A stretch of DNA of 59,739 nt, from contig CAZPMC010000009.1 of assembly GCA_964587755.1 (NCBI GenBank), positions 259 to 59,997 of the forward strand, read 5' to 3'. Shown in pieces: positions 23-29,831 of the stretch; position 1 is the stretch's first letter; the number at the start of each line of letters is the position of its first letter. Under the pieces are notes generated by a model that saw only the letters and a list, made by a program, of their open reading frames with translations, was not told the origin of the DNA and did no database searches. The DNA is from an uncultured Oscillospiraceae bacterium (GTDB lineage Bacteria > Bacillota > Clostridia > Acetivibrionales > DTU013). A program made the translations under genes and the position numbers.

Positions 23-248
23 GTTGAACCTTAACATGAGATGTATTGAAATGTGTCATAACTGCTGCAGTCAAGTCCAAAATTCTGTTGAACCTTAACA
101 TGAGATGTATTGAAATCAGATTACACAATTACGGCAGACGGCTCCGCTAGCGGTTGAACCTTAACATGAGATGTATTGAAATCCGTATAAGCCGGGGTTT
201 TCAGTAGAACCTCCACAAACACAACCTTAACATTAGATGTATAGAATC
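23..248 (+). CRISPR. CRISPR array, trailer-proximal end (3 intact repeats + 1 degenerate terminal repeat); array continues off the left edge
   Basis: 30-bp repeat GTTGAACCTTAACATGAGATGTATTGAAAT at 23-52, 87-116, 153-182. Degenerate copy ACACAACCTTAACATTAGATGTATAGAATC at 219-248. Unique spacers 53-86 (34 bp), 117-152 (36 bp), 183-218 (36 bp); 1-22 is the end of another spacer. The repeat ends in ATTGAAAT (8-nt crRNA handle type), which sets + orientation. Confidence 0.93.
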
Positions 249-11229: not shown

Positions 11230-11470
11230 CCGACTACGAAGGTTTGAGCCTTATAATGAATAAAAATACATTTTATGTAACCCATTGAAAACGGCTAAAA
11301 ATATTGATAATATATACATACTGTAATTAGGCAGTAGGGACTATTTTAGATGTTAGCCATATGCCAAGGGGGGCTTTTATACATCTGAATGAAACTGATG
11401 CCTTTTTTAGTATATATTGAGTTTATATTTATTAGCATAACCGGGGCTGATTAACTAATGAGGTGTTTTG

Positions 11471-12388: not shown

Positions 12389-12404
12389 GGAGCGATGAAG
12401 ACTG

Positions 12405-13454: not shown

Positions 13455-13465
13455 GGTTGAAAATT

Positions 13466-14464
13466 ATGAGCGATATTTTACTTGATATTAAAAATGAACG
13501 GCTCTCCTTCTTCACACCTGCGGGTGAAGTTAAGGCATTAAATGATGTGTCTATAAGCATGAATGAGGGGGATGTATTAGGGATAGTCGGTGAGAGCGGA
13601 AGCGGTAAAAGCGTAACTGCATACTCCATAATGGGTCTTACTGCTTACCCGGGGCGATTGATAGGTGGTACGATTGAATTTAACGGTCACAGGATAGATC
13701 AACTGTCAGAGAAGGAAATGCGTGATATTCGCGGTAATGAGGTAAGTATAATTTTCCAGGACCCGATGACAAGTCTAAATCCTGTTTTTACTATAGGGGA
13801 TCAGATAAAAGAGGTTATTTTACTGCATACGGATAAAACGAAGGAAGAGGCTAATCAACGTGTTATTGAGCTTCTGAATCTGGTTGGTATAAATGAACCG
13901 GAAAAACGGATAAAGCAGTATCCTCACCAACTGTCGGGTGGCATGAGGCAAAGAGTAATGATAGCTATTGCCCTGGCTTGTGAACCTAAGCTTTTGATTG
14001 CCGATGAACCTACTACTGCATTAGACGTTACAATTCAGGCTCAGATACTGGAGCTGATGATAGAGCTGAAAGAAAAAATCGGCATGTCTATTATTATGAT
14101 TACCCATGACTTGGGCATAGTTGCGAGCATGTGCCAGAAAATTGCGGTAATGTATGCAGGTAAAATCGTAGAGTATGGAACGGTTGATGAAATATTCTAC
14201 AATCCTAAGCATGAATATACAAAAGGGTTGCTCAGGAGCATCCCGAAGCTGAACGAGAAAGAGCATAAAAGGCTGGTGCCGATTGAGGGTACCCCTGTGG
14301 ATATGCTCAATCCGCCTGCAGGATGTCCCTTTGCTCCACGTTGTGACAGCTGCATGAAGATTTGCCTGTCAAGAATGCCAGAGTATACTGTTATTTCTGA
14401 TACTCACTACAGTGCTTGCTGGCTTTTGCAAAAGGAAGCTTTTGAGCAGGGGGGGAAATTATAA
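13466..14464 (+). CDS. oppD: Opp/Dpp-type ABC transporter ATP-binding protein
   Basis: Walker A GESGSGKS, signature LSGGMRQR, Walker B LLIADEPT, and the C-terminal oligopeptide-type Cys motif. Confidence 0.93.
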
Positions 14465-15432
14465 TGAGTAAGCTTGTTGAAGTTCAGAATCTGAAGCAAT
14501 ATTTTAAAGTCGGGGGCAGCTTTATAAAGCCCCAGTATGTTAAAGCGGTAGATGATGTGAGCTTTCATATAGATAAGGGCGAGACTTTGGGCCTCGTCGG
14601 AGAGAGCGGTTGCGGAAAGACGACAACAGGACGGACCATATTAAGATTGTACGAGCCCACAAGCGGCAGGATTATTTATGATGGCGAGGATATAACAAAG
14701 GTTGATATGATGCCTTACCGCCGCAAAATGCAGATTGTTTTCCAAGACCCCTATGCAAGTCTTGACCCTCGAATGACCGTCGGAGACATTGTTGGCGAAG
14801 CCATTGATATTCATAAGCTGGCATCAAGCAAGAGTGAGCGCAAGGATAAAATAATTTCAATGCTTGAGCGGGTCGGCTTGAACAGTGAGCATGCAAACCG
14901 TTATCCTCACGAGTTTTCCGGCGGACAACGCCAGCGTATTGGCATTGCCCGGGCTTTGGCTGTTGATCCTGAATTTATTGTGTGTGATGAGCCGATTTCT
15001 GCTTTGGATGTTTCAATTCAGGCTCAGGTGGTAAATATGTTTGAAGATTTACAAGAGGAGCTTGGACTGGCATATTTGTTTATTGCGCATGATCTCAGTG
15101 TTGTAAAGCATATCAGCAACCGTATAGGTGTTATGTACCTTGGGAAGCTGGTTGAGCTGGCGGACAGCTATGAGCTGACATTCCATAGCGTACATCCATA
15201 CACCAAGTCTTTGATTTCGGCTATTCCGATTGCAGACCCCATCGCAAGCCGCAGTCAAAAGAGAATTATTCTTGAAGGTGATGTACCAAGCCCGCTAAAT
15301 CCGCCATCAGGGTGCAGGTTCCGCACAAGGTGCCCATATGCTACTGAGATTTGTGCCCAGCAGGAGCCTGAATTTAAGGAAGTTTCAAAAGGGCATTTTG
15401 CTGCTTGTCATCATCTTGACAAGGTTAATTAA
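14464..15432 (+). CDS. oppF: Opp/Dpp-type ABC transporter ATP-binding protein
   Basis: Walker [10 protein letters not shown], signature FSGGQRQR, Walker [10 protein letters not shown]. Start overlaps the oppD stop. Confidence 0.93.
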
Positions 15433-15449
15433 CGGTTATTATATGTTTG

Positions 15450-15509
15450 ACCCGTAATATAGCTGCTGAAAGAGAAATATACCGGCAGCCGGTAATAAAT
15501 ATTACGGGT
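15450..15509 (+). promoter_or_regulatory. Intercistronic stem-loop between oppF and the binding-protein gene
   Basis: ACCCGTAATAT (15450-15460) pairs with ATATTACGGGT (15499-15509). An inner helix GCTGCTG/CGGCAGC is also possible. No T-run follows. Confidence 0.5.
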
Positions 15510-15565
15510 ACGAACATTATAATAAATACAGTACTTTGTACTAAAAAATCTGGGGAGGATTGTTT

Positions 15566-17194
15566 ATGAAGAGAAAAATTTCTATTATTCTCGCATTTGT
15601 GTTAGTTATCAGTATGATGCTAACCGCTTGCGCTGGTGTATCAGGAAAATCTGACACACTCAATGTCTGTGCAGGACCTGATCCTGACACGATTGACCCT
15701 GCACTCAACTCTGCAGTTGATGGTGCAACAATGATTATCCATGCTTTCGAGGGATTGTATACCCTTGACAAGGATGGCGTGCCTGTACCTGGTCAGGCCG
15801 AATCTTACGATGTAAGCGATGACGGAAAGGTTTATACCTTTAAGCTTCGTGACGGTCTTAAATGGAGCGATGGTGAGCCTTTGAAAGCTAGCGACTTCGT
15901 TTACTCATGGAAGCGTGCTGTTGATCCTGCTACAGCTGCTGACTACGAGTACATGTTTGACGTAATCGATGGGTATGTCTATGATGACCCTGCCACTGAA
16001 GAGGATGAGCGTGAGCAAACAAATCTCAATGTAGTTGCACCTGATGACAAAACACTTGTTGTTACTTTGAAGACAGCTACACCTTATTTCCTTGAGCTTA
16101 CTGCATTCCCGACATTTTCACCTGTCCGTCAGGACATGATTGAATCCAAGGGAGACGCATGGGCTACAGAAGTTGACAGCTATATCGGAAATGGCCCTTA
16201 CAAGATGGTAGAATGGGTTCCGGGCTCTCACATTTTGTTTGAAAAGAATAAGAACTACTGGAATTACAAAAAACTTGGAACAGATAAAATTAAATTCGTA
16301 CTTATGGAAGATGATGTGGCAATATCAACTGCCTTCAAGCAGGAAGAGATTCTGTTTGCAGACTCTGTGCCAAATGATGAAATAGACGCTTGGAAAGACA
16401 AGCCAGAGTTTAATCTCCAAGGCCAGTTGGGAACATATTATATTTCCTTTAACACTCAAAAGGCTCCTTTGGACAATCCTCTTGTCCGTCAAGCTTTGAC
16501 ACTTGCTGTTGACCGTGAATGGATCTGTGTAAATATCGGCAAGTCAGGTCAGCAGCCGGCAGGTGCATTTGTTGCTACAGGGCTCAGAGATGCTGATCCT
16601 ACAAAGGAATTCCGTGAAGTGGGCGGAGACTATTATGATCCTTCTGGTGCAGCATATGAAGATAATCTGGCAAAGGCAAAAGAGCTTCTTGCACAGGCAG
16701 GATATCCTGATGGAAAAGGCTTGCCGACTATGGAGTACCTCTATAACGAAAGCACCGGGCACCAGGCAATCGGTGAGGCATTACAGGATATGTGGAAGAA
16801 GATCGGCGTTAACATCACTCTTGTTTCACAGGAGTGGGGTACATTCCTGAATACCCGTAAGAACGGTGATTATTACATCGCTCGTAACGGATGGCTCAGT
16901 GACTACAACGATCCTATTTCAATGCTTGACATGTGGATAACAGGCGGCGGAAACAATGACGCTCAGTGGAGCAACGCAGAATATGATGCTCTTATCGCAC
17001 AGGTAAAAGCTTCAGACGACCCGGCAGAGCGCTTTGAGCTGATGCATAAAGCAGAGGATATTATATTTGCTGAAAGCATGCTTTGCCCGATATACTACTA
17101 TGTTGACCTGTATCTCCTGAATCAAAAGGTTGAAGGCTTCTGGTCCTCACCTCTCGGATACAAGTACTTCATGTTTGCAACAGTAAAAGACTAA
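15566..17194 (+). CDS. oppA: ABC transporter substrate-binding lipoprotein, family 5 (peptide/oligosaccharide type)
   Basis: Lipobox LTACAG; family-5 SBP length and motifs. GGAGG lies 7 nt before ATG 15566. Confidence 0.9.
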   Translation: MKRKISIILAFVLVISMMLTACAGVSGKSDTLNVCAGPDPDTIDPALNSAVDGATMIIHAFEGLYTLDKDGVPVPGQAESYDVSDDGKVYTFKLRDGLKWSDGEPLKASDFVYSWKRAVDPATAADYEYMFDVIDGYVYDDPATEEDEREQTNLNVVAPDDKTLVVTLKTATPYFLELTAFPTFSPVRQDMIESKGDAWATEVDSYIGNGPYKMVEWVPGSHILFEKNKNYWNYKKLGTDKIKFVLMEDDVAISTAFKQEEILFADSVPNDEIDAWKDKPEFNLQGQLGTYYISFNTQKAPLDNPLVRQALTLAVDREWICVNIGKSGQQPAGAFVATGLRDADPTKEFREVGGDYYDPSGAAYEDNLAKAKELLAQAGYPDGKGLPTMEYLYNESTGHQAIGEALQDMWKKIGVNITLVSQEWGTFLNTRKNGDYYIARNGWLSDYNDPISMLDMWITGGGNNDAQWSNAEYDALIAQVKASDDPAERFELMHKAEDIIFAESMLCPIYYYVDLYLLNQKVEGFWSSPLGYKYFMFATVKD

Positions 17195-17449: not shown

Positions 17450-19300
17450 ATGTATAAGAAGGCTGCTTTATTTCTTACCTGTATACTGCTTATTTTTACT
17501 GTGGCGTGTACCGCTGCCGATGACAACAAAGGTGTCGAACCATTTGCCTTAAATGAAGTATCACTTAGTCCAAGTGAGTTTACAACAAACAGAGATAGAA
17601 TGCATAGCTATTTAGAATCAGTGAATGATGACTCTATGCTGTATGTTTTCCGGGAAGCAGCGGGGCTTGACACAACGGGGACTTATCCTCTTGGAGGATG
17701 GGACTCACCTGATGTTAAGCTCAGAGGACATACTACAGGACACTATATGACTGCTTTGGCACAGGCTTATGCTGAAAGCAAAGATGAAACATTTAAAGAA
17801 AAGCTTGATTATATTGTTGAGGAATTAGGCAAATGTCAGGATGCACTGCCGAGCCAAAGCAATGATATGGGAGGCAAAAACAGTGAAGGATATCTTGCAG
17901 GTTATCCTGAAAAGCAGTTTATTCTTTTGGAATCCTTTGCTACATATGGAACCGATGACGACCAAATATGGGCGCCTTATTACACAAACCACAAAATCAT
18001 GACAGGGCTAATAGATGCGTATAAGCTGGCAGGAAACGAAAAAGCCTTAGATATAGTTACGAAAATGGGTGACTGGGTATACGGGAGGCTCAGCAAATGT
18101 ACAAGGGGGCAACTGGACAAGATGTGGAGCATTTATATAGCTGGAGAATTTGGCGGAATGAATGAGACAATGGCTGAGCTCTACAATATCACAGGTAAGG
18201 AAGAATATATTATTGCAGCCAAATATTTTGACAATACAACATTATTTAATGCATGCGCTTCAGGAGAAGACATATTGGAGGATATGCATGCAAATCAGCA
18301 TATTCCGCAGATTACGGGCAGCCTTAGAATATATGACCAAACCGATGAGCAGTTTTATTATGATGTGGCAGAAAACTTCTGGGATATGGTGGTCAACCAC
18401 CGTCAATATTGCAATGGCGGGACAGGCCAAAAGGAGAGATTCAAAGGAAGGGATAAAATCGCAGAGAATCTTGAGGGCAGGGAGGCGGAGACATGCGCGA
18501 CCTACAATATGCTGAAGCTTTCAAGAAACCTGTTCTTCCATGACCCTGATGCAAAGTATATGGATTATTATGAAAGAGGCCTGTACAATGGCATACTTGC
18601 TTCATTGCTGACGGTGAGGTCAGGGAACAATGTTACTTATTTTATGCCGTTGGCGCCCGGTTCCCGGAAGGAATTTGGGAATGGGTACACCTGCTGTGCC
18701 GGAACGGGAATGGAAAACCACACTAAATATCAGGATTCAATTTATTTTAAGGCTAAAGACAACTCGGCTCTTTATGTAAATCTGTACATTCCCTCAGAGT
18801 TGAACTGGGAGGATAAAAAATTCAAATTGAGACAGGAAACAAGCTGGCCGAATCAGCAATCTTCGACATTTACTGTGGAAAATGGTGGACGGATGGATAT
18901 AAAGTTCAGGGTGCCTTACTGGGCGGAAAATGGGTTTTCGATTGAGGTAAATGGGAAAATTCAGGAGGTGGAAGCTAAGTCAGGCAGTTATGCTACTGTC
19001 AGCAGGAGATGGAAGGCAGGAGATGTGATTAAGGTAATATATCCGTACAGCTTAAGACTTGAAAGAACACCTGACGACAGTACTGTCGGGTCTATATTCT
19101 TTGGACCGATTCTGCTTGTCGGAAAGGATAGAAGGGCGGACTTTATCGAGCTTGAACTAAATACCGAGGATTTATCCCAATCTATTACAATAGTTGACGA
19201 AGAGGCAATGACATTTGAAGCAGATTCGGTGACTCTAGTGCCTATGTACACAGCTTATAACTTTAGATATCATGCATATTTCAAGATATCTGACAAATAA
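17450..19300 (+). CDS. GH127/GH146-type beta-L-arabinofuranosidase (DUF1680) lipoprotein
   Basis: Lipobox FTVAC. The Glu-x-Cys (ETC, 18488-18496) and Cys-Cys (YTCCAGTGMENH, 18692-18697) pattern corresponds to the Zn/nucleophile residues described for HypBA1-type GH127. Confidence 0.85.
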   Translation: MYKKAALFLTCILLIFTVACTAADDNKGVEPFALNEVSLSPSEFTTNRDRMHSYLESVNDDSMLYVFREAAGLDTTGTYPLGGWDSPDVKLRGHTTGHYMTALAQAYAESKDETFKEKLDYIVEELGKCQDALPSQSNDMGGKNSEGYLAGYPEKQFILLESFATYGTDDDQIWAPYYTNHKIMTGLIDAYKLAGNEKALDIVTKMGDWVYGRLSKCTRGQLDKMWSIYIAGEFGGMNETMAELYNITGKEEYIIAAKYFDNTTLFNACASGEDILEDMHANQHIPQITGSLRIYDQTDEQFYYDVAENFWDMVVNHRQYCNGGTGQKERFKGRDKIAENLEGREAETCATYNMLKLSRNLFFHDPDAKYMDYYERGLYNGILASLLTVRSGNNVTYFMPLAPGSRKEFGNGYTCCAGTGMENHTKYQDSIYFKAKDNSALYVNLYIPSELNWEDKKFKLRQETSWPNQQSSTFTVENGGRMDIKFRVPYWAENGFSIEVNGKIQEVEAKSGSYATVSRRWKAGDVIKVIYPYSLRLERTPDDSTVGSIFFGPILLVGKDRRADFIELELNTEDLSQSITIVDEEAMTFEADSVTLVPMYTAYNFRYHAYFKISDK

Positions 19301-19332
19301 TTTGGAATACCATGAGATAAGAGGGTGTAAAA

Positions 19333-20016
19333 ATGAAGAATAAAATTTTATTAGTAATATGTTGTATGCTGATGTTTTTTGCAGTATCATGCGGAGGTGC
19401 GAAAATCCCGGATACAGAAACACCTCAGCTTGAACCTCCCACAAAGGGCGAAACAATTGCAATCATGAAGACGGATATGGGTGATATCAAGATAAAGTTT
19501 TTCCCTTTGGAAGCTCCAAAGGCTGTGGAGAATTTTATAGGACTTGCTAAAAAGGGTTATTATGACGGGATTATTTTTCACAGAGTGATAAAGGACTTTA
19601 TGATACAGGGAGGTGACCCCACCGGGACTGGTACCGGTGGAGAAAGCATATGGGGAAAGCCCTTTGAGGATGAATTCAGCGATAAGCTGTGCAACTACAG
19701 GGGAGCTTTATCCATGGCGAATTCAGGTCCAAATACAAACGGAAGCCAGTTCTTTATAGTCCAGGTGAACCATTTGCCGGAGGAACTGGAAGAGCAGATG
19801 ATCGTGTATGGCTTTGACCCTGAGGTGATTGAGAAGTACAAGGAATACGGCGGGACTCCTTGGCTTGATAACCGGCATACCGTATTCGGGGAAGTGTTCG
19901 AAGGCATGGAGGTTGTTGATAAAATAGCGGCAGTAAAGGTTGACAGTAAAAGCAGCAAACCGCTGGAGGATGTTAAAGTTATTTCTGTTGAGATTACGAC
20001 CTATGATGGCAACTAA
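19333..20016 (+). CDS. Cyclophilin-type peptidyl-prolyl cis-trans isomerase, lipoprotein
   Basis: Lipobox AVSCGG; [27 protein letters not shown] and [16 protein letters not shown] motifs. It starts 32 nt after the GH127 gene. Confidence 0.93.
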
Positions 20017-20043: not shown

Positions 20044-20092
20044 AACCCCTTGAGAAGGACTTTACAAGTCCTTCTCAAGGGGTTTTTTTTAA
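20044..20092 (+). terminator. Strong Rho-independent terminator
   Basis: Perfect 19-bp stem AACCCCTTGAGAAGGACTT / AAGTCCTTCTCAAGGGGTT followed by T8. Confidence 0.85.
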
Positions 20093-20236: not shown

Positions 20237-21319
20237 ATGAGAAAGACAAGTTTTTATTTTATTGGAGTATTGATTATTGCTATTGTTTTTACCTGTTTAC
20301 CGGTTATAGCACATGCCCAGCAGGAGACCAGCTTTACTTTAATAAAAAACACTGACCAGGCAGCTGCCGGGCAACGCATTGAGCTTACTCTTCAGGGCAA
20401 CAACATGAAGGATTTATATGCGTACGAAGCAACAGTGTCATTTAATTCGTCAGCTGTTGAGTTTGAAAAAGCCGAATCAAAGCTTGAAGGTTATTTCATA
20501 AAGCCAATAGTAAAAGGCAACAAAATCACCCTTGCCTACACAAAAGTAGGGGACAAAGCGGGTGAACAAGGAACAAAGGAGTTATGCAAAATAATACTCA
20601 AGGGTAAGGCCCAAGGCAGTTCACAGGTTAAATTGGAGCAGGTAAAGGCGGTAAATCCCGACCTTAAAGTAAAAAGCTATTCAAAGCTGTCTGAAGAGAC
20701 AGAAGGAGCGGGAGGCACAGTTTATCAAATCGTTACCTTGGATGAAGAGTCTGTACCGAAAGGAGAGGTAAAGAAATTCCTTGATCTTGATGGTTACGAA
20801 TGGGCAAGAATGGAAATTGAGGCTCTGGCTTCCGAAGAGATTATAAGAGGCACGTCAGATACCACATTTAGTCCGGGAGCAAAAATAAAAAGGGCTGATT
20901 TTGTATGTCTGCTTGTCAGGGCATTTAAGTTTGCCGCAGAAGTGGACAGCAACTTTGATGATGTGGAGCCGGGGAAATATTATTACCAGGAAGTAGGCAT
21001 AGCCAAAAAGCTGGGAATTATCCTTGGGACAGGAGGAAACAAATTCAGACCCACCGACAATATTTCAAGACAGGACATGATGGTTATTGTGGCAAGGGCT
21101 ATGAAATTAGCTGAAATGGAGCCAAAGAACGCCCCTTCAGATTTGTCCGGGTTCAAGGATGCCAATGAAGTTGCACCCTATGCGAGAGAAGCCGTAGCCA
21201 TGCTGGTAGGTGAAAAGATTATCCAGGGAAGCAATGGCAAAATCAATCCGATAGGTACAGCGACAAGAGCCGAAACGGCTGTTATTCTGTACAGAGTTTT
21301 ACAATTATACAGGCAATAA
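20237..21319 (+). CDS. Cell-surface anchoring protein: cohesin-like module + three SLH repeats
   Basis: Signal peptide. Cohesin-like beta-sandwich at aa about 30-145 (IELTLQGNNMKDLYAYEATVSFNSSAVEFEKAES). SLH repeats begin at FLDLDGYEWARMEIEAL, FDDVEPGKYYYQEVGIA and FKDANEVAPYAREAVAML. Confidence 0.8.
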   Translation: MRKTSFYFIGVLIIAIVFTCLPVIAHAQQETSFTLIKNTDQAAAGQRIELTLQGNNMKDLYAYEATVSFNSSAVEFEKAESKLEGYFIKPIVKGNKITLAYTKVGDKAGEQGTKELCKIILKGKAQGSSQVKLEQVKAVNPDLKVKSYSKLSEETEGAGGTVYQIVTLDEESVPKGEVKKFLDLDGYEWARMEIEALASEEIIRGTSDTTFSPGAKIKRADFVCLLVRAFKFAAEVDSNFDDVEPGKYYYQEVGIAKKLGIILGTGGNKFRPTDNISRQDMMVIVARAMKLAEMEPKNAPSDLSGFKDANEVAPYAREAVAMLVGEKIIQGSNGKINPIGTATRAETAVILYRVLQLYRQ

Positions 21320-21336
21320 AATTTGGAGGTGGAAGA

Positions 21337-24300
21337 ATGTTAAAAAAGCGAATAGCAGCTTTCATGGTGTTGGCCATGTTAGTTAGCATGTTCTCAGGAC
21401 TTGCTTTAATTGCCAGGGCGGATGAAGAATCAAGTGATGAGGACTTGGTTGTTTGGTACAAATTTGATCAGGTTGACGGGACTGTGATTGCCGACGCGTC
21501 AGGCAATGGAAAAAATGCAACGATGGTCGGCGGCGTCAGTATCGGTGACCGGGGGAACGAAAAGGCAGCAGTACTTGACGGTTCAAACGGTTATTTGCAG
21601 CTTCCTCAGGGAATTGTAAGCGGACTTACTGATATGACTGTTACTGCCTGGGTTTATATAAATGATACCCAGGGTTATCAAAGAATATTTGACTTTGGAA
21701 ACAATACCTCAAGATACATGTATCTTTTGTCGTCTGGAAGAAATGATAGTGCTTACGGTTTTTCTGCCGGCATTACCACAAGCGGCTGGACAAATGAGAG
21801 GACTACAGCCACAGGAGTAGATTTGCCTGAGGGGGAATGGATTCATGTGGCATTCGTGCAGTCAGGCACTACGGTTAGATTATACCAAAACGGTGCAAAT
21901 GTAGCTGAGAACACCTCAGTTGACCTTAACGCTTCAAGTCTTGGCAGCACTTCGAATAATTATATAGGCAAATCACAGTTTTCAGGCGATGCCACTTTCG
22001 ATGGAAGCGTCAGTGATTTCAGAATATATAAAAGAGCGTTAACAGACGCAGAGATTGGCGCTATAGCAGGAATTACCGATGAATACTGCGTCCAAATGGA
22101 CAAAGAGGCTATATACATCGGAAACATATTCACAATAGAATCAGATTTGGTTCTGCCCACTCAAGGCGCAATGGGTTCGACCATTACATGGTCATCAAGC
22201 AACCCTGAAATAATTTCTAACGATGGAAAGGTCACACGTCCCGCAGCCGGAGAGCCAAATGCGGAAGTCATACTGATAGCAACCATTACAAAAGGCGAGG
22301 CATTCGATACAAGGGAGTTCGTATGCACCGTACTGGCAGAGCTGACAGATCAGGCAAAGGCTGAGGCTGATGCCTCTGCGATTAACCTTGGAGATACAAG
22401 CAGTGTTGTATCCGACCTTACACTGCCAACGGTTGGTACAACTTACGGATCGGCAATTTCATGGGAATCAAGTGATCCAAGCATAATAGCAGCAGACGGA
22501 AGGGTGACAAGACCAGAGTATGGGCAAGGTGACGCGACTGTTACATTGACGGCTACTGTTATAAACGGCACTACGGGAGAATCTGTCAGGAACTTTACCG
22601 TAACAGTGCTGCAAAAAGAGTTCGTCCTGATGATATCAGAAATCAGTGAAGTAAATGTATCGACTATCGTAGGAAACGCACCTTCACTTCCTGAAGCGGT
22701 AGTCGCGATATATAACGACAACAGCAGAAGAATGCTGCCGGTTGTATGGGACAGCATTGATGAATCAAAATATGCCAGAGCAGGATTCTTCAAGGTAGAG
22801 GGTACTGTTAGCTCTACCAACATAAAAGCTGTTGCTAATGTTACTGTAAATACTTTTGATATAAGCACTTCCTTCAATATGAGTCAATTGACTCCCGGAA
22901 GCGAGCTTGTCGCTACTGTCAATGCCACAAACAGAGGCAGCGAAAGTGCATCACTCCTTGAGATTGTCGTACTGTATGACGCTGCCGGTAGAATGAGGAA
23001 TGTGGTATATTCATCCAAGGAAATACAGCCGGGAGAAACGGAAGAATTAAACGGAAGTATAACACTGCCAGGTGATGTTGCAGGCTGGAAGGCTAAAGTT
23101 TTTGTCTGGTCAGGCCCCGGTATAACTACATCGTCCCTGCAGCCTCAGGCAAAGGTTGCAGAGCTTTTATCCGAACCTCAGGAAGAGGTGAGGAGACCGG
23201 ATGTACCCGGTGGCCTTACAGCTGAAGCAGATATTTCTTCAGTAACAATCTCATGGGATGAGGTTCTCGGTGCAGAAGGGTATGACATTGAGGTTGACGG
23301 CACAGTAATAACTGACGTTACAAGTCCGTATGAGCATACAGGACTGGTATACAATTCTACTCACACCTATTCCGTCAGGGCAAAGAACAGTGCCGGAGCC
23401 AGCCCGTGGAGCTTGCCGCTAACAGTGACGCTGGAAACGGGCGGATTTGGCGATGAGAGCTTAGTAGTCAAACCTTTTAATTTAAGTGAAGTTACGCTTT
23501 TAACTAGCCCGTTTACTGCAAACAGGGATAGAACGGTGAATTACCTTAAGTCCTGCAATGATGATTCAATGCTTTATGTATTCAGAGTAACTGCAGGTCT
23601 TGATACGAAAGGCGCATCGCCCATAGGCGGCTGGGACGCCCCCGATAGCAAATTGAGAGGACACACCACTGGACATTACCTATTAGCGCTTTCTCAGGCT
23701 TATGCGGAAAGCCAGGACACTGAACTGAAGGCCAAGATCGACTATCTGGTAGCAGAGCTGGCCAAATGCCAGGAAGCACTGCCAAGCCAGAGCAATGATA
23801 TGGGAGGCTTCAATAACGAAGGTTATCTGGCCGGATATCCCGAAAAGCAATTTATTAGATTAGAAGCTTTTGCAACATACGGCTCTGGGCCGGATCAAGT
23901 CTGGGCGCCTTATTATACAAACCACAAAATCATGTCAGGTTTAATTGCTGCATATAAGCTGGCAGGCAATACACAGGCTCTGGACATTGTTACAAAAATG
24001 GGAGACTGGGTATACGGGAGGCTTAGCAAGTGCACAAGAGAACAGCTTGATAGAATGTGGGGCATATACATTGCAGGCGAATATGGCGGAATGAACGAGG
24101 TAATGGCGGAGCTTTACAGCTTGACAGGTGATTCGAAATACATTGCAACAGCCAAATATTTTGACAACACAACACTCTTTGATGCCTGTGCTCAGAATAA
24201 TGATATTTTAACCGGAAAACATGCAAACCAGCATATACCTCAAATAACGGGTAGCTTGAGGGTGTTCGACGTGACAAATGAACAGTCCTATTATGATACA

Positions 24301-25230
24301 GCGAAAAATTTCTGGGATATGGTAGCAGAGCATCGCATATACTGTACCGGCGGTACAAGCCAAGGCGAGATGTTCAGGCAAAGGGACAGGATAGCCCAAT
24401 ACATTTCAAGTGACACAACAGAAACCTGTTGCACATATAATATGCTGAAATTGACAAGGAATCTTTTCTTCCATGACTCTCAGCCCAAATACATGGATTA
24501 TTATGAGAGAGCCCTTTATAATAATATCCTAGCTTCTCAGCGGCAGTCAGGCAGCGGACATAATATAACATATTTCATGCCGTTAAATCCTGGAGCACAA
24601 AAAGGGTTCGGAAATGGCTATACTTGCTGCGCAGGCACCGGTATGGAGAACCATACAAAGTACCAGGATTCAATTTATTTCAAATCTGCTGATGAGACTG
24701 CTCTTTATATTAATCTCTATATTCCTTCAGCCTTAAATTGGGCAAAGAAAGGGTTCAAAATCACTCAGCAGACAAATTGGCCAAGTCAACAATCCTCAAC
24801 ATTTACAGTAAATGAAGGCGGACAGCTGGGTATTAATTTCAGGGTACCTTACTGGTCAGGAAGCGATTTCTCAATCAAAATAAACGGAGTTGACCAGGAA
24901 GTGGAGGCGACTGCGGGAAGCTATGTCACAATCAGCAGAACATGGGCAGCGGGTGATGAGATAGTTGTTTCCTTCCCCTATAGCTTCAGAGTAGAGCCGA
25001 CACCTGACGACAGCTCTGTTATTGCATTGTTCTACGGCCCCATATTGCTTGTAGGAAAGGATAACAGTACCAGTTATATAAACCTTTCACTTAATACAGA
25101 AAATCTTTCCGAGTCAATTACACCGGTCGATGGGCAGCCGATGAACTTCATAACAAACGGTGTTACGCTTGTACCCATGTATACTGCATCCGGTTTTAGG
25201 TATCATGCGTATTTCAAGCTAGCCCAATAA
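21337..25230 (+). CDS. 1297-aa secreted multidomain GH127-type beta-L-arabinofuranosidase
   Basis: Signal peptide, then LamG/ConA-like domain (aa about 35-245). Two Ig-like repeats carry ITWSSSNPEIISNDGKVTRP and ISWESSDPSIIAADGRVTRP. Then a Big_4-like domain (VVWDSIDESKYARAGFFKVEGTV), an unassigned beta-sandwich and an FN3 domain (VTISWDEVLGAEGYDIEVDG). The GH127 core from about 23458 is colinear with the product of 17450-19300 (TETC and YTCCAGTGMENH retained). Confidence 0.85.
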   Translation: MLKKRIAAFMVLAMLVSMFSGLALIARADEESSDEDLVVWYKFDQVDGTVIADASGNGKNATMVGGVSIGDRGNEKAAVLDGSNGYLQLPQGIVSGLTDMTVTAWVYINDTQGYQRIFDFGNNTSRYMYLLSSGRNDSAYGFSAGITTSGWTNERTTATGVDLPEGEWIHVAFVQSGTTVRLYQNGANVAENTSVDLNASSLGSTSNNYIGKSQFSGDATFDGSVSDFRIYKRALTDAEIGAIAGITDEYCVQMDKEAIYIGNIFTIESDLVLPTQGAMGSTITWSSSNPEIISNDGKVTRPAAGEPNAEVILIATITKGEAFDTREFVCTVLAELTDQAKAEADASAINLGDTSSVVSDLTLPTVGTTYGSAISWESSDPSIIAADGRVTRPEYGQGDATVTLTATVINGTTGESVRNFTVTVLQKEFVLMISEISEVNVSTIVGNAPSLPEAVVAIYNDNSRRMLPVVWDSIDESKYARAGFFKVEGTVSSTNIKAVANVTVNTFDISTSFNMSQLTPGSELVATVNATNRGSESASLLEIVVLYDAAGRMRNVVYSSKEIQPGETEELNGSITLPGDVAGWKAKVFVWSGPGITTSSLQPQAKVAELLSEPQEEVRRPDVPGGLTAEADISSVTISWDEVLGAEGYDIEVDGTVITDVTSPYEHTGLVYNSTHTYSVRAKNSAGASPWSLPLTVTLETGGFGDESLVVKPFNLSEVTLLTSPFTANRDRTVNYLKSCNDDSMLYVFRVTAGLDTKGASPIGGWDAPDSKLRGHTTGHYLLALSQAYAESQDTELKAKIDYLVAELAKCQEALPSQSNDMGGFNNEGYLAGYPEKQFIRLEAFATYGSGPDQVWAPYYTNHKIMSGLIAAYKLAGNTQALDIVTKMGDWVYGRLSKCTREQLDRMWGIYIAGEYGGMNEVMAELYSLTGDSKYIATAKYFDNTTLFDACAQNNDILTGKHANQHIPQITGSLRVFDVTNEQSYYDTAKNFWDMVAEHRIYCTGGTSQGEMFRQRDRIAQYISSDTTETCCTYNMLKLTRNLFFHDSQPKYMDYYERALYNNILASQRQSGSGHNITYFMPLNPGAQKGFGNGYTCCAGTGMENHTKYQDSIYFKSADETALYINLYIPSALNWAKKGFKITQQTNWPSQQSSTFTVNEGGQLGINFRVPYWSGSDFSIKINGVDQEVEATAGSYVTISRTWAAGDEIVVSFPYSFRVEPTPDDSSVIALFYGPILLVGKDNSTSYINLSLNTENLSESITPVDGQPMNFITNGVTLVPMYTASGFRYHAYFKLAQ

Positions 25231-25256
25231 GAATTTGATAATAAGGAGGAGATTGT

Positions 25257-26222
25257 GTGAAGCATCGTTTTATTTCGAAAATTTTAATATTCGCAATTGT
25301 AGCAATTATGCTCAATATATTTTGCATCCAGGGTTTTGCTGCACAGACCGGTGCAACGATTTCAAACGTTAGCATAAGTCATGATTCACAAAACAGCAAA
25401 CTGATAATTACCGGCGCCATAAGCTCCGGAAGCGGATGCGAGGTCACTGTTACCGTGACCACACCAACAGGCGTGATAGACTTTATTGACCAGGTAACAA
25501 GCGGGTCTGGTGGAAGTTTCACATTTGAGTATGTATATGATGAGCTTCTTGACGGACAGTATTTAATCAGTATAGGCGGCATAGGAGTTGACTTGCCTTA
25601 TTCAGGCACCTGGCAGAAGGATGGAGGACAGACAGGTCAAAACTTGATGGTAATAACCGCACCTGACAGAGTATACTCACATGATACATTTGAAGCAGGT
25701 ATCGGCATATCGGACATAAGTCCAAATATTTACGCTATGATTATCACATTAAACTACAATGCGCAACATCTTGAATATATTAAGACTGAAAAAGTCGATG
25801 AAAGCGATGAGAATATTATGGTCTTGAGTACATTGAATACTCCGGGGTTATTGAAAATAGTAAAAACGGATACGACCAGCTTCTCTGATATTGAGCAGGC
25901 GGCTAAAGTCACCTTTAGGGTAAGAAGTGGAATAAGCAACGTGACAAGCAATATACAAATTACAAGTGCAGAGCTCGGTGTTGCTCCGGGAGGAGAAGTA
26001 ATCTTTGCTGAGTTGGCCGATAAAACCATTTCAGTATTAATGCCGGGAGATGTAAGCGGAGATGGCGATGTAGACGTGGGTGACCTTGCTATTGTCGCAT
26101 ACTATTATGGAAAGACATCGGAGGATGAGGATTGGCATTTGGCTCGAGTTGCAGACTTCAATGGTGACAATAGGGTAGACTTTATTGATCTCGCATTTGT
26201 AGCACAAAAAATGTTGGATTAA
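25257..26222 (+). CDS. Adaptor scaffoldin-like protein: Ig-like module + cohesin-like module + dockerin
   Basis: Signal peptide. Cohesin-like module at aa about 128-260 (YAMIITLNYNAQHLEYIKTEK). Dockerin with two Ca-binding loops, DVSGDGDVDVGDL and DFNGDNRVDFIDL (about 26043-26216). GTG start follows AGGAGG. Confidence 0.8.
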   Translation: MKHRFISKILIFAIVAIMLNIFCIQGFAAQTGATISNVSISHDSQNSKLIITGAISSGSGCEVTVTVTTPTGVIDFIDQVTSGSGGSFTFEYVYDELLDGQYLISIGGIGVDLPYSGTWQKDGGQTGQNLMVITAPDRVYSHDTFEAGIGISDISPNIYAMIITLNYNAQHLEYIKTEKVDESDENIMVLSTLNTPGLLKIVKTDTTSFSDIEQAAKVTFRVRSGISNVTSNIQITSAELGVAPGGEVIFAELADKTISVLMPGDVSGDGDVDVGDLAIVAYYYGKTSEDEDWHLARVADFNGDNRVDFIDLAFVAQKMLD

Positions 26223-26236
26223 TTAGACTCATTTAT

Positions 26237-26289
26237 ATTGGTTTGTTTTCCCAGTGGATGACTTTGGTTGTCCACTGGGATTTATTTTG
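26237..26289 (+). terminator. Terminator hairpin, member of the repeated hairpin family (copy H3)
   Basis: CCCAGTGGA (26250-26258) / TCCACTGGG (26271-26279), loop TGACTTTGGTTG, then ATTTATTTTG. The 5' flank ATTGGTTT is shared with copy H4. Confidence 0.7.
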
Positions 26290-26294
26290 GCATA

Positions 26295-26580
26295 ACGGCA
26301 GGCTGTAAGAAATAAGTCTCGCTGAAATGCGGCGGCTGGTCGCATACTTCGTATGCTGCTCGCCCATGCAACCTGGCTGACGATTCGGCGTCCGTGCCTC
26401 AATGCCAGCGGGTTTGCCGTCCATGGCAAACTTTAGCGTTCCTGATACCACATTCCAACTTCACCACATTTCACAGCCTGTAAAGACTTCATTACATGGT
26501 GCCTGAAGCTAACCTCCACAAACGGCACTGCCGGTCAGCTTCAGTGCCTGGCGCCAAATAATGGCACTAAATAATGCACC
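26295..26580. repeat. GC-rich composite non-coding repeat element (copy B)
   Basis: Contains CAGGCTGTAAGAAAT (26299-26313), inverted relative to ATTTCACAGCCTGTA (26468-26482). Also GCTGAAATGCGGCGG (26321-26335), AACCTCCACAAACGGCACTGCCGGTC (26511-26536) and CTTCAGTGCCTGGCGCC (26539-26555). All of these recur at 39950-40126. Confidence 0.7.
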
Positions 26581-26590
26581 AAATAAATGT

Positions 26591-26619
26591 TTAAGCTAAA
26601 TGCCCTTTCTGTCCGATAT
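26591..26619 (+). promoter_or_regulatory. Possible sigma-D (sigma-28) type promoter for motAB
   Basis: CCGATAT at 26613-26619 matches the sigma-D -10 core, about 90 nt upstream of motA. Candidate -35 elements (TTAAG 26591-26595, CTAAA 26596-26600) are at non-ideal spacing. Confidence 0.3.
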
Positions 26620-26711
26620 AGTCATAGAGGTATTTATTGAAATAAAATGTACATTATGCTAGTATTATGTCAGACAAATGGATAAAGATGCTGATTTTAG
26701 GGGGAAAAGGC

Positions 26712-27524
26712 ATGGATTTTGCAACGATTATCGGTGTTGTGTTTGGAATAGTCTGTATAGTTGTCTCAATTTTAATTAGCGGCGACTTGATGTCATTCTA
26801 TAATCTACCATCGATATTTATTACTGTGGGCGGCGGGCTTGCATCTTCAATTATTTCCTACAGACTATCAGAATTTAAGCATATTTTTAAATTAATGGGC
26901 ATGGCTTTTGTAAACAAAAGATCTGATGCTAATGATACTATAAAGCTAATGGTAAGACTTTCAGAGAAAACAAGGCGTGAAGGACTTCTTGCAATAGAAT
27001 CAGAGCTCGAAGAGATAGATGATCCCTTTATCAGGCGCTCGCTGCAGCTTGTTGTTGACGGTATTGAATCTGAGACAATTAAGGACTACATGAACATGGA
27101 AATTGATAATATGGAAGCCCGTCATGCAACAGGCATCGCAATGTTTAGGACAATGGGTGCTGAATTTCCCGCCTGGGGTATGATAGGAACCTTGGTAGGC
27201 CTTATTTTGATGCTTCAAACCCTGGACGACCCATCCTCAATTGGACCTCAAATGGCCGTTTCACTCATTACAACATTTTATGGATGTGTTTTGTCAAACT
27301 TTATTTGCCTTCCGATAGCGGACAAGCTTCAGAAGAATAATGATGAAGAGGTTCATGTAAAGGAGCTTATTGCAGAAGCTGTAATTTCAATACAAGCCGG
27401 TGAAAACCCCAAAATGATGGAGCATAAGCTGAAGGTATTCCTTTCACCTAATGAGCGGGAGATATTTGAAAGAAAGGATGCTGACAGGGCTAGAGATAAA
27501 GAGGAAGCTGTTAGTCAAAATTAG
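26712..27524 (+). CDS. motA: Flagellar motor stator protein MotA (MotA/TolQ/ExbB channel family)
   Basis: 4-TM MotA architecture with FPAWGMIGTLVGLILML and TTFYGCVLSNFICLPIADKL. ATG 26712 follows GGGGGA; the ORF is open from 26667. Confidence 0.88.
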   Translation: MDFATIIGVVFGIVCIVVSILISGDLMSFYNLPSIFITVGGGLASSIISYRLSEFKHIFKLMGMAFVNKRSDANDTIKLMVRLSEKTRREGLLAIESELEEIDDPFIRRSLQLVVDGIESETIKDYMNMEIDNMEARHATGIAMFRTMGAEFPAWGMIGTLVGLILMLQTLDDPSSIGPQMAVSLITTFYGCVLSNFICLPIADKLQKNNDEEVHVKELIAEAVISIQAGENPKMMEHKLKVFLSPNEREIFERKDADRARDKEEAVSQN

Positions 27525-27535
27525 GAGAGATAACT

Positions 27536-28294
27536 ATGAATAGCAGACCCAAAAAGGAGAAAGTGCCTGAAGCAGGTGCACCTGCATGGATGACCAGCTA
27601 CGGTGATCTAATGACAAACCTCTTATGCTGCTTTGTATTACTTTTTTCCATGGCAATTGTAGACCAGCAAAAGTTTGAAGCAGTAGCTTCTTCTTTGCGT
27701 GCAGCCTTTTCAAATCAAAGTATAAGTACATTTGAAGAAGAAAAAAAGGATAGTATTATAAATCTCTTACCGGATGTCCAACCGGGCAATCAGCCGGACG
27801 AAACAGACGATATTGACGGGGAAAAGCCTGATGCAGTATCTGAGAAAATGACTGTTGCAGAAGCTAAAGCAGAGATAGAACAGCTCATAGAAGGAATGGG
27901 TCTAAACGAAAACATAAAGGTTATTGAGGAAAAGGATATTGTTATTTTCAGAGTTGACTCACTTATTTTATTTGACTCCGGAAAGGCAGATTTGAAGGAA
28001 TCAGGCAAGCCGGTTATTGAACAAATAGGAAAGGTGATGAAGAAACTGAATATTGATATTTTAGTTCAAGGTCATGCTGATGACCGTCCAATAAGCACTT
28101 CAATTTTCCCTTCAAACTGGGAATTATCGACAAAAAGAGCGACCAATGTAGTAAAATATTTAATGTCTAAATGCGGTATTGAAGGCAAGTATCTTACTGC
28201 AACAGGAAATGCAGAATATAAGCCTATCGCGCCAAATGATACTGAATATAACAGACAAAAGAATAGAAGAATAGATATTGTTGTTGCAAAGTAA
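27536..28294 (+). CDS. motB: Flagellar motor protein MotB (OmpA/MotB peptidoglycan-binding domain)
   Basis: APAWMTSYGDLMTNLLCCFVLLF plug/TM segment with the conserved Asp. C-terminal OmpA-like domain (GHADDRPI...NWELSTKRA...NRRIDIVV). Confidence 0.9.
   Translation: MNSRPKKEKVPEAGAPAWMTSYGDLMTNLLCCFVLLFSMAIVDQQKFEAVASSLRAAFSNQSISTFEEEKKDSIINLLPDVQPGNQPDETDDIDGEKPDAVSEKMTVAEAKAEIEQLIEGMGLNENIKVIEEKDIVIFRVDSLILFDSGKADLKESGKPVIEQIGKVMKKLNIDILVQGHADDRPISTSIFPSNWELSTKRATNVVKYLMSKCGIEGKYLTATGNAEYKPIAPNDTEYNRQKNRRIDIVVAK

Positions 28295-28322: not shown

Positions 28323-29831
<1,509 letters not shown>

Follow-up and report, generated by a model that had tools for sequence, protein, structure and literature searches.

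Gene content and transcriptional layout

The stretch of DNA analyzed here (the window, 59.7 kb from an uncultured Clostridia lineage) carries three open reading frames on the forward strand that encode an SLH-bearing cohesin protein (the anchor), a GH146-like enzyme, and a small protein with both a cohesin and a dockerin (the adaptor). Signal peptides of all three proteins were called by direct reading of the sequence. The features of the locus are as follows:

17450-20016, + strand: separate upstream unit, with a GH146 paralog (616 aa, probable lipoprotein) and a PPIase lipoprotein of the cyclophilin type
20044-20084, + strand: intrinsic terminator (19-bp stem and T-run) ending the upstream GH146-lipoprotein/PPIase unit; 5' operon boundary
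20237-21319, + strand: anchor gene, 360 aa, with signal peptide, cohesin, and three SLH repeats (Pfam, AF2, Foldseek)
20324-20686, + strand: anchor-type cohesin, aa 30-150 (Pfam 22.9 bits; Foldseek 2vo8, 2jh2)
20771-21304, + strand: three SLH repeats, aa 179-356 (Pfam E = 1.3e-29), a predicted secondary cell-wall polymer binding module
21337-25230, + strand: secreted multidomain GH146-like beta-L-arabinofuranosidase, 1297 aa (Pfam, solved-relative matches)
21577-22812, + strand: N-terminal non-catalytic modules of the enzyme (LamG, aa 81-240; two aBig_2, aa 252-433; Big_4, aa 436-492)
22849-23427, + strand: beta-rich module without annotation, aa 505-620, then fn3, aa 624-697 (fn3 by Pfam)
23488-24978, + strand: clan GH-P catalytic (aa 718-1111) and middle (aa 1123-1214) domains (Pfam E = 1e-104)
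25257-26222, + strand: adaptor gene, 321 aa, with signal peptide, Ig-like module, cohesin, and dockerin (Pfam, AF2, Foldseek)
25353-25616, + strand: Ig-like beta-sandwich module, aa 33-120 (AF2 strands, pLDDT about 80)
25647-26042, + strand: cassette-type cohesin, aa 131-262 (Pfam 37.5 bits, above cutoff)
26043-26216, + strand: dockerin with two Ca-binding loops, aa 263-320 (Dockerin_1 37.2 bits, above cutoff; 57/57 profile positions)
26249-26280, + strand: intrinsic terminator (14-bp stem and T-run); 3' operon end

The coordinates of the three co-directional genes and the intergenic gaps of 17 and 26 nt were verified as first described. We predict that they are co-transcribed as one operon, because strong terminators lie on either side, none was found between the three genes, and an SD sequence precedes the start of each; for the adaptor, which starts with GTG, this is AGGAGG located 7 nt upstream. 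The same layout occurs in the metagenomes L001, L006, and L210, the last two of which also keep the 3' terminator, and at least four independent metagenomes show it maintained by purifying selection (dN/dS 0.23 for the anchor, 0.15 for the enzyme, and 0.22 for the adaptor).

Domain assignments

The anchor (signal peptide cleavage read as IAHA/QQ) was originally described as a signal peptide, a cohesin-like module, and three SLH repeats, and this reading holds. Its SLH region matches that of B. anthracis Sap (E = 4e-11) and, by Foldseek, the SLH trimers 3pyw/6bt4 (TM 0.84). The Pfam score of the cohesin is slightly under the gathering score of 24.1 bits, a threshold that many relatives of the anchor pass, and a profile match links it to the cohesin of C. 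perfringens NagJ (E = 0.004). The AF2 model (pLDDT 82.7) aligns with 2vo8 and 2jh2 (TM 0.67-0.69, E about 1e-6) as well as with the solved cohesins of OlpC and OlpA, so that the sub-threshold assignment is confirmed by the predicted fold. At E <= 1e-10, public data contain 338 clusters of this cohesin when grouped at 50% identity. The architecture matches that of an SLH-anchoring single-cohesin scaffoldin.

The adaptor (cleavage read as GFA/AQ) likewise has the modules initially attributed to it, with a predicted N-terminal beta-sandwich followed by a cohesin and a dockerin, and its architecture matches that of a monovalent adaptor scaffoldin. The Ig-like module gives generic Ig/MG-like matches in Foldseek and shows no similarity to any module of the GH146-like enzyme. 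The cohesin aligns with 2vo8/2jh2 (TM 0.80-0.82, E = 1e-10) and is only 24% identical to that of the anchor. It directly adjoins the dockerin, with no FIVAR spacer between them. Both Ca loops of the reported two-loop dockerin were located (26049-26084 and 26154-26189), and these are the only such motifs in the six frames of the window. All three modules appear to be under purifying selection (dN/dS 0.30 for the Ig-like module, 0.22 for the cohesin, and 0.18 for the dockerin). The HMM searches suggested in the preliminary description called the adaptor cohesin, the dockerin, the SLH repeats, and PF07944, but left the anchor cohesin below its cutoff.

The enzyme (cleavage read as IARA/DE) comprises LamG, two aBig_2, Big_4, fn3, and the PF07944/PF20736 catalytic and middle domains; its module at aa 505-620 gave no match in Pfam and PDB sequence searches. 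The earlier label of "GH127-type" is right at the level of the clan but not of the family, since the best solved relatives of the catalytic region are GH146 BT0349 (5opj, E = 1e-90) and Bll3HypBA1 (8k7x/8k7y), while GH127 HypBA1 (3wkw) matches with only E = 1e-9. Candidate Zn ligands are E1029, C1031, C1097, and C1098; the ETC and CC motifs are retained in alignment to BT0349, corresponding to the Glu-Cys and Cys-Cys motifs of BT0349 and Bll3HypBA1 and to the Cys3-Glu Zn site described in PMC10850190. LamG and Ig-like accessory modules are also common to the window enzyme and Bll3HypBA1 (PMC10850190). SLH repeats are absent from the enzyme, and no dockerin or cohesin was found in it by Pfam (E <= 0.01), family-specific HMMs, or motif scan. 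Without these modules the enzyme cannot be loaded via the canonical route, and it is not a canonical component of the display system.

Related systems

About 27 reference loci contain a full-length anchor homolog (in Paenibacillus, Cohnella, Anaerovoracaceae, and others), and in every one of them it is adjoined by 1-5 proteins ending in a cohesin-spacer-dockerin cassette. The pairing is thus not accidental and, as the architectures also match known scaffoldin types, the anchor-plus-adaptor logic first proposed for this locus is well supported by comparative genomics. Among 56 cassette proteins there are 22 GH43, 6 GH10, 4 GH127-type, and 4-5 GH3 enzymes (N-terminal GH3 domain matched in 4, C-terminal in 5). 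In Clostridia-type loci, a small non-catalytic cassette protein lies directly 3' of the anchor, and these proteins are the best distant homologs of the adaptor. Identity to the window across lineages is about 53% for the dockerin and about 49% for the anchor cohesin but only about 31% for the cassette cohesin, a pattern that fits a conserved contact between the first two; taken alone it carries little weight, since dockerin conservation partly reflects Ca binding.

The system type was noted in Paenibacillus guangzhouensis by a 2024 genomic survey and is known only from sequence: each GH enzyme has a single cohesin and a single dockerin, and nearly all dockerins reside on cohesin-bearing proteins beside five SLH anchors (PMC11557425). 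Paenibacillus anchors share the architecture of the window anchor with about 50% identity over the full length, the cassettes are homologous, and the shared theme is hemicellulose or arabinan breakdown. In the window, by contrast, the host is a clostridial lineage, the enzyme has no cassette, and the sole cassette is that of the small, non-catalytic adaptor, where the FIVAR/DUF4972 spacer of 80-160 aa is missing. We found no characterized GH127/GH146 cohesin-dockerin assembly; the system type itself had been noted bioinformatically in the 2024 survey, and GH127-type cassette fusions lie beside the anchor in four Paenibacillus species.

The modules themselves most resemble those of the non-cellulosomal Clostridium perfringens type. 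Among solved structures, both window cohesins are most closely related to those of the C. perfringens glycosidase complexes (NagJ and NanJ cohesins with the NagH FIVAR-dockerin; 2jh2, 2vo8, 2ozn; TM 0.67-0.82), which also rank among the top sequence matches for the window dockerin. FIVAR precedes the dockerin in NagH and in relatives of the window cassette but is missing from the adaptor; the C. perfringens system, for its part, has no SLH anchor and is made up of toxins that degrade mucin and host glycans. Cellulosomal SLH anchors (A. thermocellus OlpA, OlpC, SdbA) and the monovalent adaptor ScaC of R. flavefaciens, with one cohesin and one dockerin, follow the same domain logic as the window anchor and adaptor, respectively, and cellulosomal cohesins are among the structural matches of the anchor (3ul4, 4dh2, 2bm3, 5lxv). 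However, the window contains no multi-cohesin primary scaffoldin, CBM3, or dockerin-bearing cellulase, and sequence relatedness to cellulosomes is at superfamily level only. ClcC/ClcD of Cellulosilyticum lentocellum offer a similarly reduced system, with neighboring genes transcribed together and one cohesin-dockerin contact being enough (PMC13487519), although there the dockerin is on a GH5 enzyme and the cohesin protein has CBM3 and no SLH.

Proposed mechanism and alternatives

Based on domain architecture and gene neighborhood, the three-gene operon is best read as a reduced form of a surface-display system, widespread in bacteria, that joins cohesin and dockerin modules on an SLH anchor; here the adaptor would dock on the anchor and the enzyme would be co-expressed but is not a canonical part. 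We assign this reading a probability of roughly 0.55. The secreted anchor would be held on the wall through binding of its SLH triplet to secondary cell-wall polymer. The C-terminal dockerin of the adaptor would probably plug, with Ca2+, into the N-terminal cohesin of the anchor, exposing the Ig-like module and a second, different cohesin that could take another dockerin of the same family. Because the dockerin of the adaptor is the only one known in the lineage, the default expectation is short chains of adaptors joined head to tail, with dockerin proteins encoded elsewhere in the genome as possible alternative ligands. There is experimental precedent in the R. bromii amylosome, where the dockerin of Amy4 (GH13-cohesin-dockerin) binds both the wall anchor Sca2 and Amy4's own cohesin to give surface multimers (PMC4611034), although Sca2 is sortase-anchored, the modules are of ruminococcal type, and Amy4 is an enzyme.

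The free adaptor cohesin could instead load enzymes encoded at other genomic loci whose dockerins differ in type from that of the adaptor, a two-tier arrangement with type switching comparable to that of R. flavefaciens ScaC. The adaptor has the exact architecture of the monovalent adaptor defined in PMC11557425, its cohesin is selectively maintained while divergent from that of the anchor, and the L186 metagenome encodes a dockerin-only protein, without cohesin, whose dockerin is very similar. We nevertheless regard this as a tentative possibility, given that no second dockerin occurs in the window or in sister contigs of 41-55 kb, that searches of 5.8 billion proteins and of metagenome contigs returned no enzyme with a close copy of the adaptor dockerin, and that related systems place virtually every dockerin on a cohesin-bearing protein. 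Degeneration of a larger cassette system, leaving a functionless adaptor, might account for the single remaining cassette and for the loss of the FIVAR spacer and CBM-like N-terminal region found in relatives, but it is very hard to reconcile with dN/dS of 0.18-0.30 across all adaptor modules and with the fact that at least four lineages, whose proteins diverge by up to 36%, keep intact reading frames, RBS, signal peptide, and Ca ligands.

The relationship of the enzyme to the scaffold is a separate matter. The preliminary description saw the assembly as organized around the enzyme, and both the operon linkage kept in four metagenomes and the Paenibacillus LamG-aBig_2-GH127-type enzyme that bears a cassette beside an anchor homolog would suit a scaffold built to carry it by cohesin-dockerin docking. 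Canonical docking of the window enzyme is refuted by its lack of either module, which makes such a purpose exceedingly improbable. The gene seems to have been inserted, in this lineage specifically, between conserved anchor and small cassette-protein genes that would have been ancestrally adjacent, and it is probably a modular derivative of the neighboring lipoprotein paralog, which is 69% identical to its catalytic part. A non-canonical tether, in which the Ig-like module or cohesin of the adaptor binds a beta-sandwich module of the dockerin-less enzyme and displays it on the wall, would agree with the conserved linkage, with the enzyme module at aa 505-620, and with the non-canonical cohesin partner reported for ClcC (PMC13487519). 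This remains improbable and purely speculative, as sequence evidence for such contact is absent and no part of the enzyme is related to the Ig-like module.

Under the favored reading of a reduced display system, the GH146-like enzyme would be co-transcribed and secreted without a dockerin, and its insertion would couple it to the display machinery by co-expression within an L-arabinose-utilization neighborhood. What a homopolymer of a non-catalytic adaptor would gain the cell is not obvious, unless its Ig-like module has a ligand, and dockerin-bearing enzymes outside the window may load the adaptor cohesin. The tight, conserved linkage between scaffold genes and an enzyme that has no dockerin could reflect an unseen physical link. 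The window operon would be of use as a minimal test system.

The probable operon and its products

The three genes singled out in the preliminary description are co-directional and separated by gaps of 17 and 26 nt, exactly as it had claimed, and they lie among the following features.

11468-17194: Opp-type ABC importer with family-5 lipoprotein binding protein (L-arabinose neighbourhood)
20044-20084: terminator, 19-bp stem, closing the upstream unit (GH146 lipoprotein and cyclophilin lipoprotein)
20237-21319 (+): anchor, ORF1, 360 aa
21337-25230 (+): enzyme, ORF2, 1297 aa
25257-26222 (+): adaptor, ORF3, 321 aa
26249-26280: terminator, 14-bp stem, after the adaptor
28335-29831: cytoplasmic GH51 alpha-L-arabinofuranosidase (L-arabinose neighbourhood)
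49542-51527: transketolase (L-arabinose neighbourhood)
51984-53480: araA (L-arabinose neighbourhood)

Typical Sec signal peptides can be read at the start of all three proteins, and a Shine-Dalgarno sequence precedes each start (for the adaptor GTG, AGGAGG at 7 nt). No terminator comparable to the flanking ones was found between the genes; with terminators at both ends, none within and a Shine-Dalgarno sequence for each gene, the three very probably form one transcript. A search for structured RNA in or around the operon gave no Rfam match. The surrounding gene set fits a role in taking up and breaking down arabino-oligosaccharides.

Several other features of the window were recorded. A MotA/MotB stator pair (26667-28294) separates the operon from the GH51 gene and holds the same position in two metagenomic loci of the same layout (L006 and L210), a conserved placement although stator genes are odd company for glycan-utilisation genes. 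A GC-rich insertion follows the operon terminator and precedes the conserved motA promoter (window 26281-26600; L006 15973-16754); it is absent in L210 (9303-9527) and longer in L006, with repeated units and a called 75-aa minus-strand ORF. It has no Rfam match and could be a small element, either mobile or repetitive. A second SLH protein of 590 aa (31481-33253, minus strand) carries SLH repeats at its N-terminus and an fn3-like region at its C-terminus, with neither cohesin nor dockerin. At the extreme left end, three CRISPR direct repeats (23-182, minus strand; Rfam CRISPR-DR3, 48.6 bits each) belong to an array that probably continues off the contig.

The anchor was said to comprise a signal peptide, a cohesin-like module and three SLH repeats, and this composition holds, although the proposed Pfam check called only the SLH repeats: the cohesin scores 22.9 bits with PF00963, slightly below the gathering score of 24.1. 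The first match of the anchor-cohesin family profile is the NagJ cohesin, weakly (E = 0.004 only), and precomputed PF00963 matches are present in many anchor orthologs. The sub-threshold module is settled by its predicted fold. In an AF2 model built from 34 homologs (pLDDT 82.7, about 90 over aa 30-150), the best non-SLH Foldseek matches of the N-terminal part are all cohesins (2vo8, 2jh2, 1g1k, 4dh2, 2xdh; E = 2e-6 to 1e-4), in the order C. perfringens GH33 and NagJ, then OlpC, OlpA and an archaeal non-cellulosomal cohesin; the module is thus modeled as a nine-strand jelly-roll cohesin fold. The SLH triplet (PF00395) is called as three stretches (E = 1.3e-29), and the C-terminal part superimposes on the SLH trimers of B. 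anthracis Sap and P. alvei SpaA with TM 0.76-0.85 by Foldseek (Sap 0.84), so that the three tandem repeats are predicted to form a pseudo-trimer. The triplet would be expected to bind pyruvylated secondary cell-wall polymer; among the window ORFs scanned, from an incomplete genome, no pyruvyl-transferase gene was seen. A protein that combines an SLH domain with one or more cohesins counts as an SLH-anchoring scaffoldin (PMC11557425), and ORF1 is one by this definition.

The adaptor bears out its earlier description as a cohesin-like module with a two-loop dockerin, both modules being called by Pfam above cutoff: the cohesin (PF00963) at 37.5 bits and the dockerin (PF00404) at 37.2 bits over 57/57 profile positions. 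A type I dockerin has two duplicated segments, each an EF-hand-like calcium loop (D-x-[DNS]-x-[DN]...D) that leads into a helix; ORF3 carries such loops, DVSGDGDVDVGD and DFNGDNRVDFID, at 26049-26084 and 26154-26189, and a six-frame motif scan found no further dockerin loops elsewhere in the window. Its AF2 model (pLDDT 78) consists of a beta-sandwich (aa 33-120), a cohesin (TM 0.80-0.82 by Foldseek to C. perfringens 2vo8/2jh2) and a three-helix dockerin (helices at pLDDT about 90). With one dockerin and a single cohesin on one polypeptide, ORF3 fits the definition of a monovalent adaptor scaffoldin (PMC11557425). The two cohesins of the operon share only 24% identity and belong to separate subfamilies. 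A Ser/Thr pair at positions 10-11 of both dockerin repeats marks the symmetrical dual binding mode (PMC13487519); here the first repeat has V-G and the second F-I at those positions, and in the absence of the recognition pair the interface is expected to be divergent and probably single-mode.

We considered and rejected the adaptor as an enzyme fragment split off by a stop or frameshift. It has its own Shine-Dalgarno sequence, GTG start, signal peptide and Ig-like module, and origin by fission is also contradicted by related loci, in which small cassette proteins that stand alone and have signal peptides of their own are ancestral.

The enzyme had been described as GH127-type. ORF2 does have the PF07944/PF20736 beta-L-arabinofuranosidase domains, together with LamG, two aBig_2, Big_4 and fn3, but its catalytic region is closest to GH146 structures: E = 9.5e-91 to BT0349 (5opj) and about 1e-52 to Bll3HypBA1 (8k7x/8k7y; GH146 assignments from PMC10850190), against 1.9e-9 to GH127 HypBA1 (3wkw). 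ORF2 is therefore classed by similarity as GH146-like (clan GH-P) rather than GH127. BT0349 founded GH146, and a zinc Cys3-Glu site is common to both families (PMC10850190); the ETC and CC motifs of BT0349 have aligned counterparts in E1029-T-C1031 and C1097-C1098 of ORF2, so the zinc-binding site with its cysteine nucleophile is predicted to be kept. The LamG and Ig-like modules would, by analogy, target plant glycans, as has been proposed for the accessory modules of Bll3HypBA1 (PMC10850190). The upstream 616-aa probable lipoprotein (17450-19300) is 69% identical across the entire catalytic part of ORF2. Pfam (E <= 0.01), the family-module HMMs and the motif scan all found no dockerin, cohesin or SLH in ORF2, and the idea of a scaffold organised around this enzyme falls with that result. 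Most simply, ORF2 is a co-expressed, freely secreted, predicted beta-L-arabinofuranosidase and not a canonical scaffold component.

The anchor and cassette family

Paenibacillus, Cohnella, Gorillibacterium, Anaerovoracaceae and other Bacillota encode homologs of the anchor, which together make up a large and tightly conserved family; its members have ~330 aa and share about 50% identity from end to end. An exhaustive profile search (E <= 1e-10) collected 338 clusters of the anchor-type cohesin at 50% identity. Every fetched locus was scanned with HMMs that we built for four modules, namely anchor cohesin, cassette cohesin, dockerin and SLH triplet. Each of the ~27 reference loci in which the anchor homolog is full-length also encodes, next to the anchor and in the same direction, between one and five proteins of 800-2250 aa, all ending in a cassette of cohesin, an 80-250 aa FIVAR/DUF4972 spacer and dockerin. 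Wherever the full-length anchor is close (>=44% identical), every dockerin protein also bears a cohesin. The sole exception among the fetched loci (L073) has a divergent anchor (33% identical) and a 2478-aa neighbour with a dockerin and no cohesin match.

By Pfam, 56 cassette proteins include GH43 (22), GH10 (6), GH3 (4-5), GH9 (3) and GH30 (3), and four of them, all from Paenibacillus, are LamG-aBig_2-GH127-type enzymes. Small non-catalytic cassette proteins are regular members of the loci: a 427-430-aa Big_2-cohesin-FIVAR-dockerin protein directly follows the GH127-type enzyme in Paenibacillus, and a 546-623-aa cassette protein directly follows the anchor in Clostridia-type loci. The latter proteins are the best distant homologs of the adaptor, and the nearest outgroups of the window anchor (about 55% identity) are among the loci that encode them. 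Because the cohesin and dockerin of a cassette share one polypeptide and show concerted evolution inside a genome, a mirror-tree comparison of the dockerin with each cohesin would be confounded. Concerted evolution is suggested by the 77-99% identity among the cassettes of a single Paenibacillus locus (L007, L011, L030); within Clostridia-type loci (L009, L012, L013, L034) the mutual identity is only 43-68%.

Other arrangements of these modules were also seen. Nine Paenibacillus loci (L011, L017, L023, L027-L031, L059) encode a second, longer anchor of 560-610 aa (at ~14600-16700), two genes downstream of the short one, with an anchor-type cohesin, a ~240-aa insert and an SLH triplet. Database proteins P0201, P0139, P0143 and P0153 carry 4-14 tandem anchor-type cohesins, so true multi-cohesin scaffoldins of this subfamily exist elsewhere. 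In the metagenomic locus L201 (1-9838), three consecutive dockerin-only proteins are followed by small anchor-type-cohesin proteins, a more classical arrangement.

The same layout as in the window recurs on contigs of three other metagenomes (L001, L006, L210), with partial copies in L002 and L169, and the conserved order is lipoprotein GH146, PPIase, anchor, 1297-aa enzyme, 317-324-aa adaptor, MotAB, GH51. The host is an uncultured Clostridia lineage whose formate-tetrahydrofolate ligase is at most ~75% identical to that of any species representative. The only cassette of this lineage sits on the small adaptor, which has a shortened N-terminal region. The adaptor is rare, with two close relatives and then <=39% identity, and as a query on its own it found no matches in reference genomes. 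Its cohesin-to-dockerin spacer is ~0-3 aa; it is 79-163 aa in all other metagenomic matches, and a few cassettes elsewhere also have none (for example, Gorillibacterium locus L024). As the simplest history, an ancestral adjacent pair of anchor and small cassette protein would have acquired, within the L-arabinose neighbourhood, a GH146 gene between its members, related to the neighbouring lipoprotein paralog.

Relation to described systems

A cellulosome combines a multi-cohesin primary scaffoldin with dockerin-bearing (hemi)cellulases. The window has neither: it encodes two single-cohesin proteins, one dockerin and no dockerin-bearing enzyme, and its system is not a cellulosome. Among described types, the non-cellulosomal one of C. 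perfringens is nearest to these modules; its FIVAR directly before the dockerin is kept in relatives but absent from the window adaptor. The closest described system is the set of Paenibacillus guangzhouensis, known from a genome survey alone, in which 28 GH-cohesin-dockerin proteins accompany five SLH anchors, dockerins are nearly all on cohesin-bearing proteins, and the whole was termed "architecturally distinct from conventional cellulosomes" (PMC11557425). That minimal cohesin-dockerin systems can function is shown by the ClcC/ClcD pair of C. lentocellum (PMC13487519).

Literature searches on cohesin with dockerin, FIVAR and SLH, on GH146 with dockerin, and on GH127 with cohesin and dockerin found no characterised system, in agreement with the earlier statement on GH127 assemblies; the system type does appear in a 2024 survey, and a 2025 cellulosome review does not cover it. 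The parts and the logic are of known kinds, and the family has already been noticed in one genome survey. New here is that the anchor defines a family that is large, conserved, taxonomically broad and always linked to cassette proteins, that predicted GH127-type enzymes are regular cassette carriers in Paenibacillus, and that the window lineage is, by its gene content, a reduced version of the display system, its enzyme lacking a cassette and not being a canonical component.

Proposed dockerin partners and the minimal system

In the binding model that we prefer, the SLH triplet would fix the anchor to a wall polymer, the adaptor dockerin would then bind the anchor cohesin, and the adaptor's own cohesin would stay free for another dockerin. 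We favor this model because anchor and cassette proteins co-occur invariably and because experiments on Amy4 from R. bromii show that its dockerin recognises the cohesin of a wall anchor as well as the one on its own polypeptide, so that multimers form (PMC4611034). Identity to the window across lineages is about 53% for the dockerin and about 49% for the anchor cohesin but falls to about 31% for the cassette cohesin, as expected if dockerin and anchor cohesin form the conserved contact; the argument is soft because calcium binding also constrains dockerins. Since nearly all dockerins are on cohesin-bearing proteins, cassette dockerins are the only obvious ligand of the constrained cassette cohesins. 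The cohesin and dockerin of the adaptor are joined almost without a linker, which would make contact in cis sterically unlikely and favor binding in trans.

The free cohesin may instead be that of a classical adaptor, loading dockerin enzymes encoded elsewhere in the genome. Scans for further proteins of the lineage that share a close copy of the adaptor dockerin turned up none, and no enzyme with such a copy emerged from the searches, negatives of little weight because most contigs are short and the partner dockerins could be of another type. A dockerin-only protein is on record in the bioreactor metagenome assembly that also yielded the adaptor ortholog P0003: at L186 3442-4245, a 267-aa protein has an N-terminal transmembrane helix, an FG-GAP/VCBS-like stretch and, with no cohesin, a C-terminal dockerin whose first repeat (VDVGDLAIVAYYYGK) is nearly identical to that of the window adaptor. 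This membrane-anchored protein is a possible example of non-enzyme cargo for the adaptor-type dockerin family, and its existence speaks for classical loading. A non-canonical contact between adaptor and enzyme is also possible, with operon linkage as its one argument; the adaptor's Ig-like module is unrelated to all enzyme modules, and the unannotated enzyme module at aa 505-620 has no solved relative by sequence search. Every module of the adaptor is under purifying selection (dN/dS against L006 and L001: Ig 0.30, cohesin 0.22, dockerin 0.18), which contradicts the idea of a relic with no function; the values are 0.22 for the whole adaptor, 0.23 for the anchor and 0.15 for the enzyme. The most far-reaching reading couples two proposals: an anchor-docked adaptor, possibly chained head-to-tail, would hold the dockerin-less GH146 enzyme via its Ig-like module or cohesin, and the family at large would form scaffoldin-free daisy chains in which each enzyme is its own scaffoldin. 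We regard the two jointly as improbable, at roughly one chance in eight. Were the tether real, a cohesin-dockerin scaffold would display an enzyme that has no dockerin.

For annotation, ORF2 becomes GH146-like rather than GH127 and is placed in the L-arabinose-utilisation neighbourhood of an uncultured anaerobe, and hundreds of database entries named "S-layer homology domain-containing protein" belong to the anchor family. These proteins appear to be the anchoring scaffoldins of a hemicellulose- and arabinan-directed surface display system that, known from sequence alone, appears to span Paenibacillus, Cohnella and several Clostridia lineages. The window lineage has its smallest version. Since it has just a single dockerin and a single cohesin each of the anchor and the cassette type, it offers a clean minimal system for partner specificity, suited to asking which cohesin the dockerin chooses, whether cassettes polymerise as in Amy4, and whether an enzyme can be retained without a dockerin.
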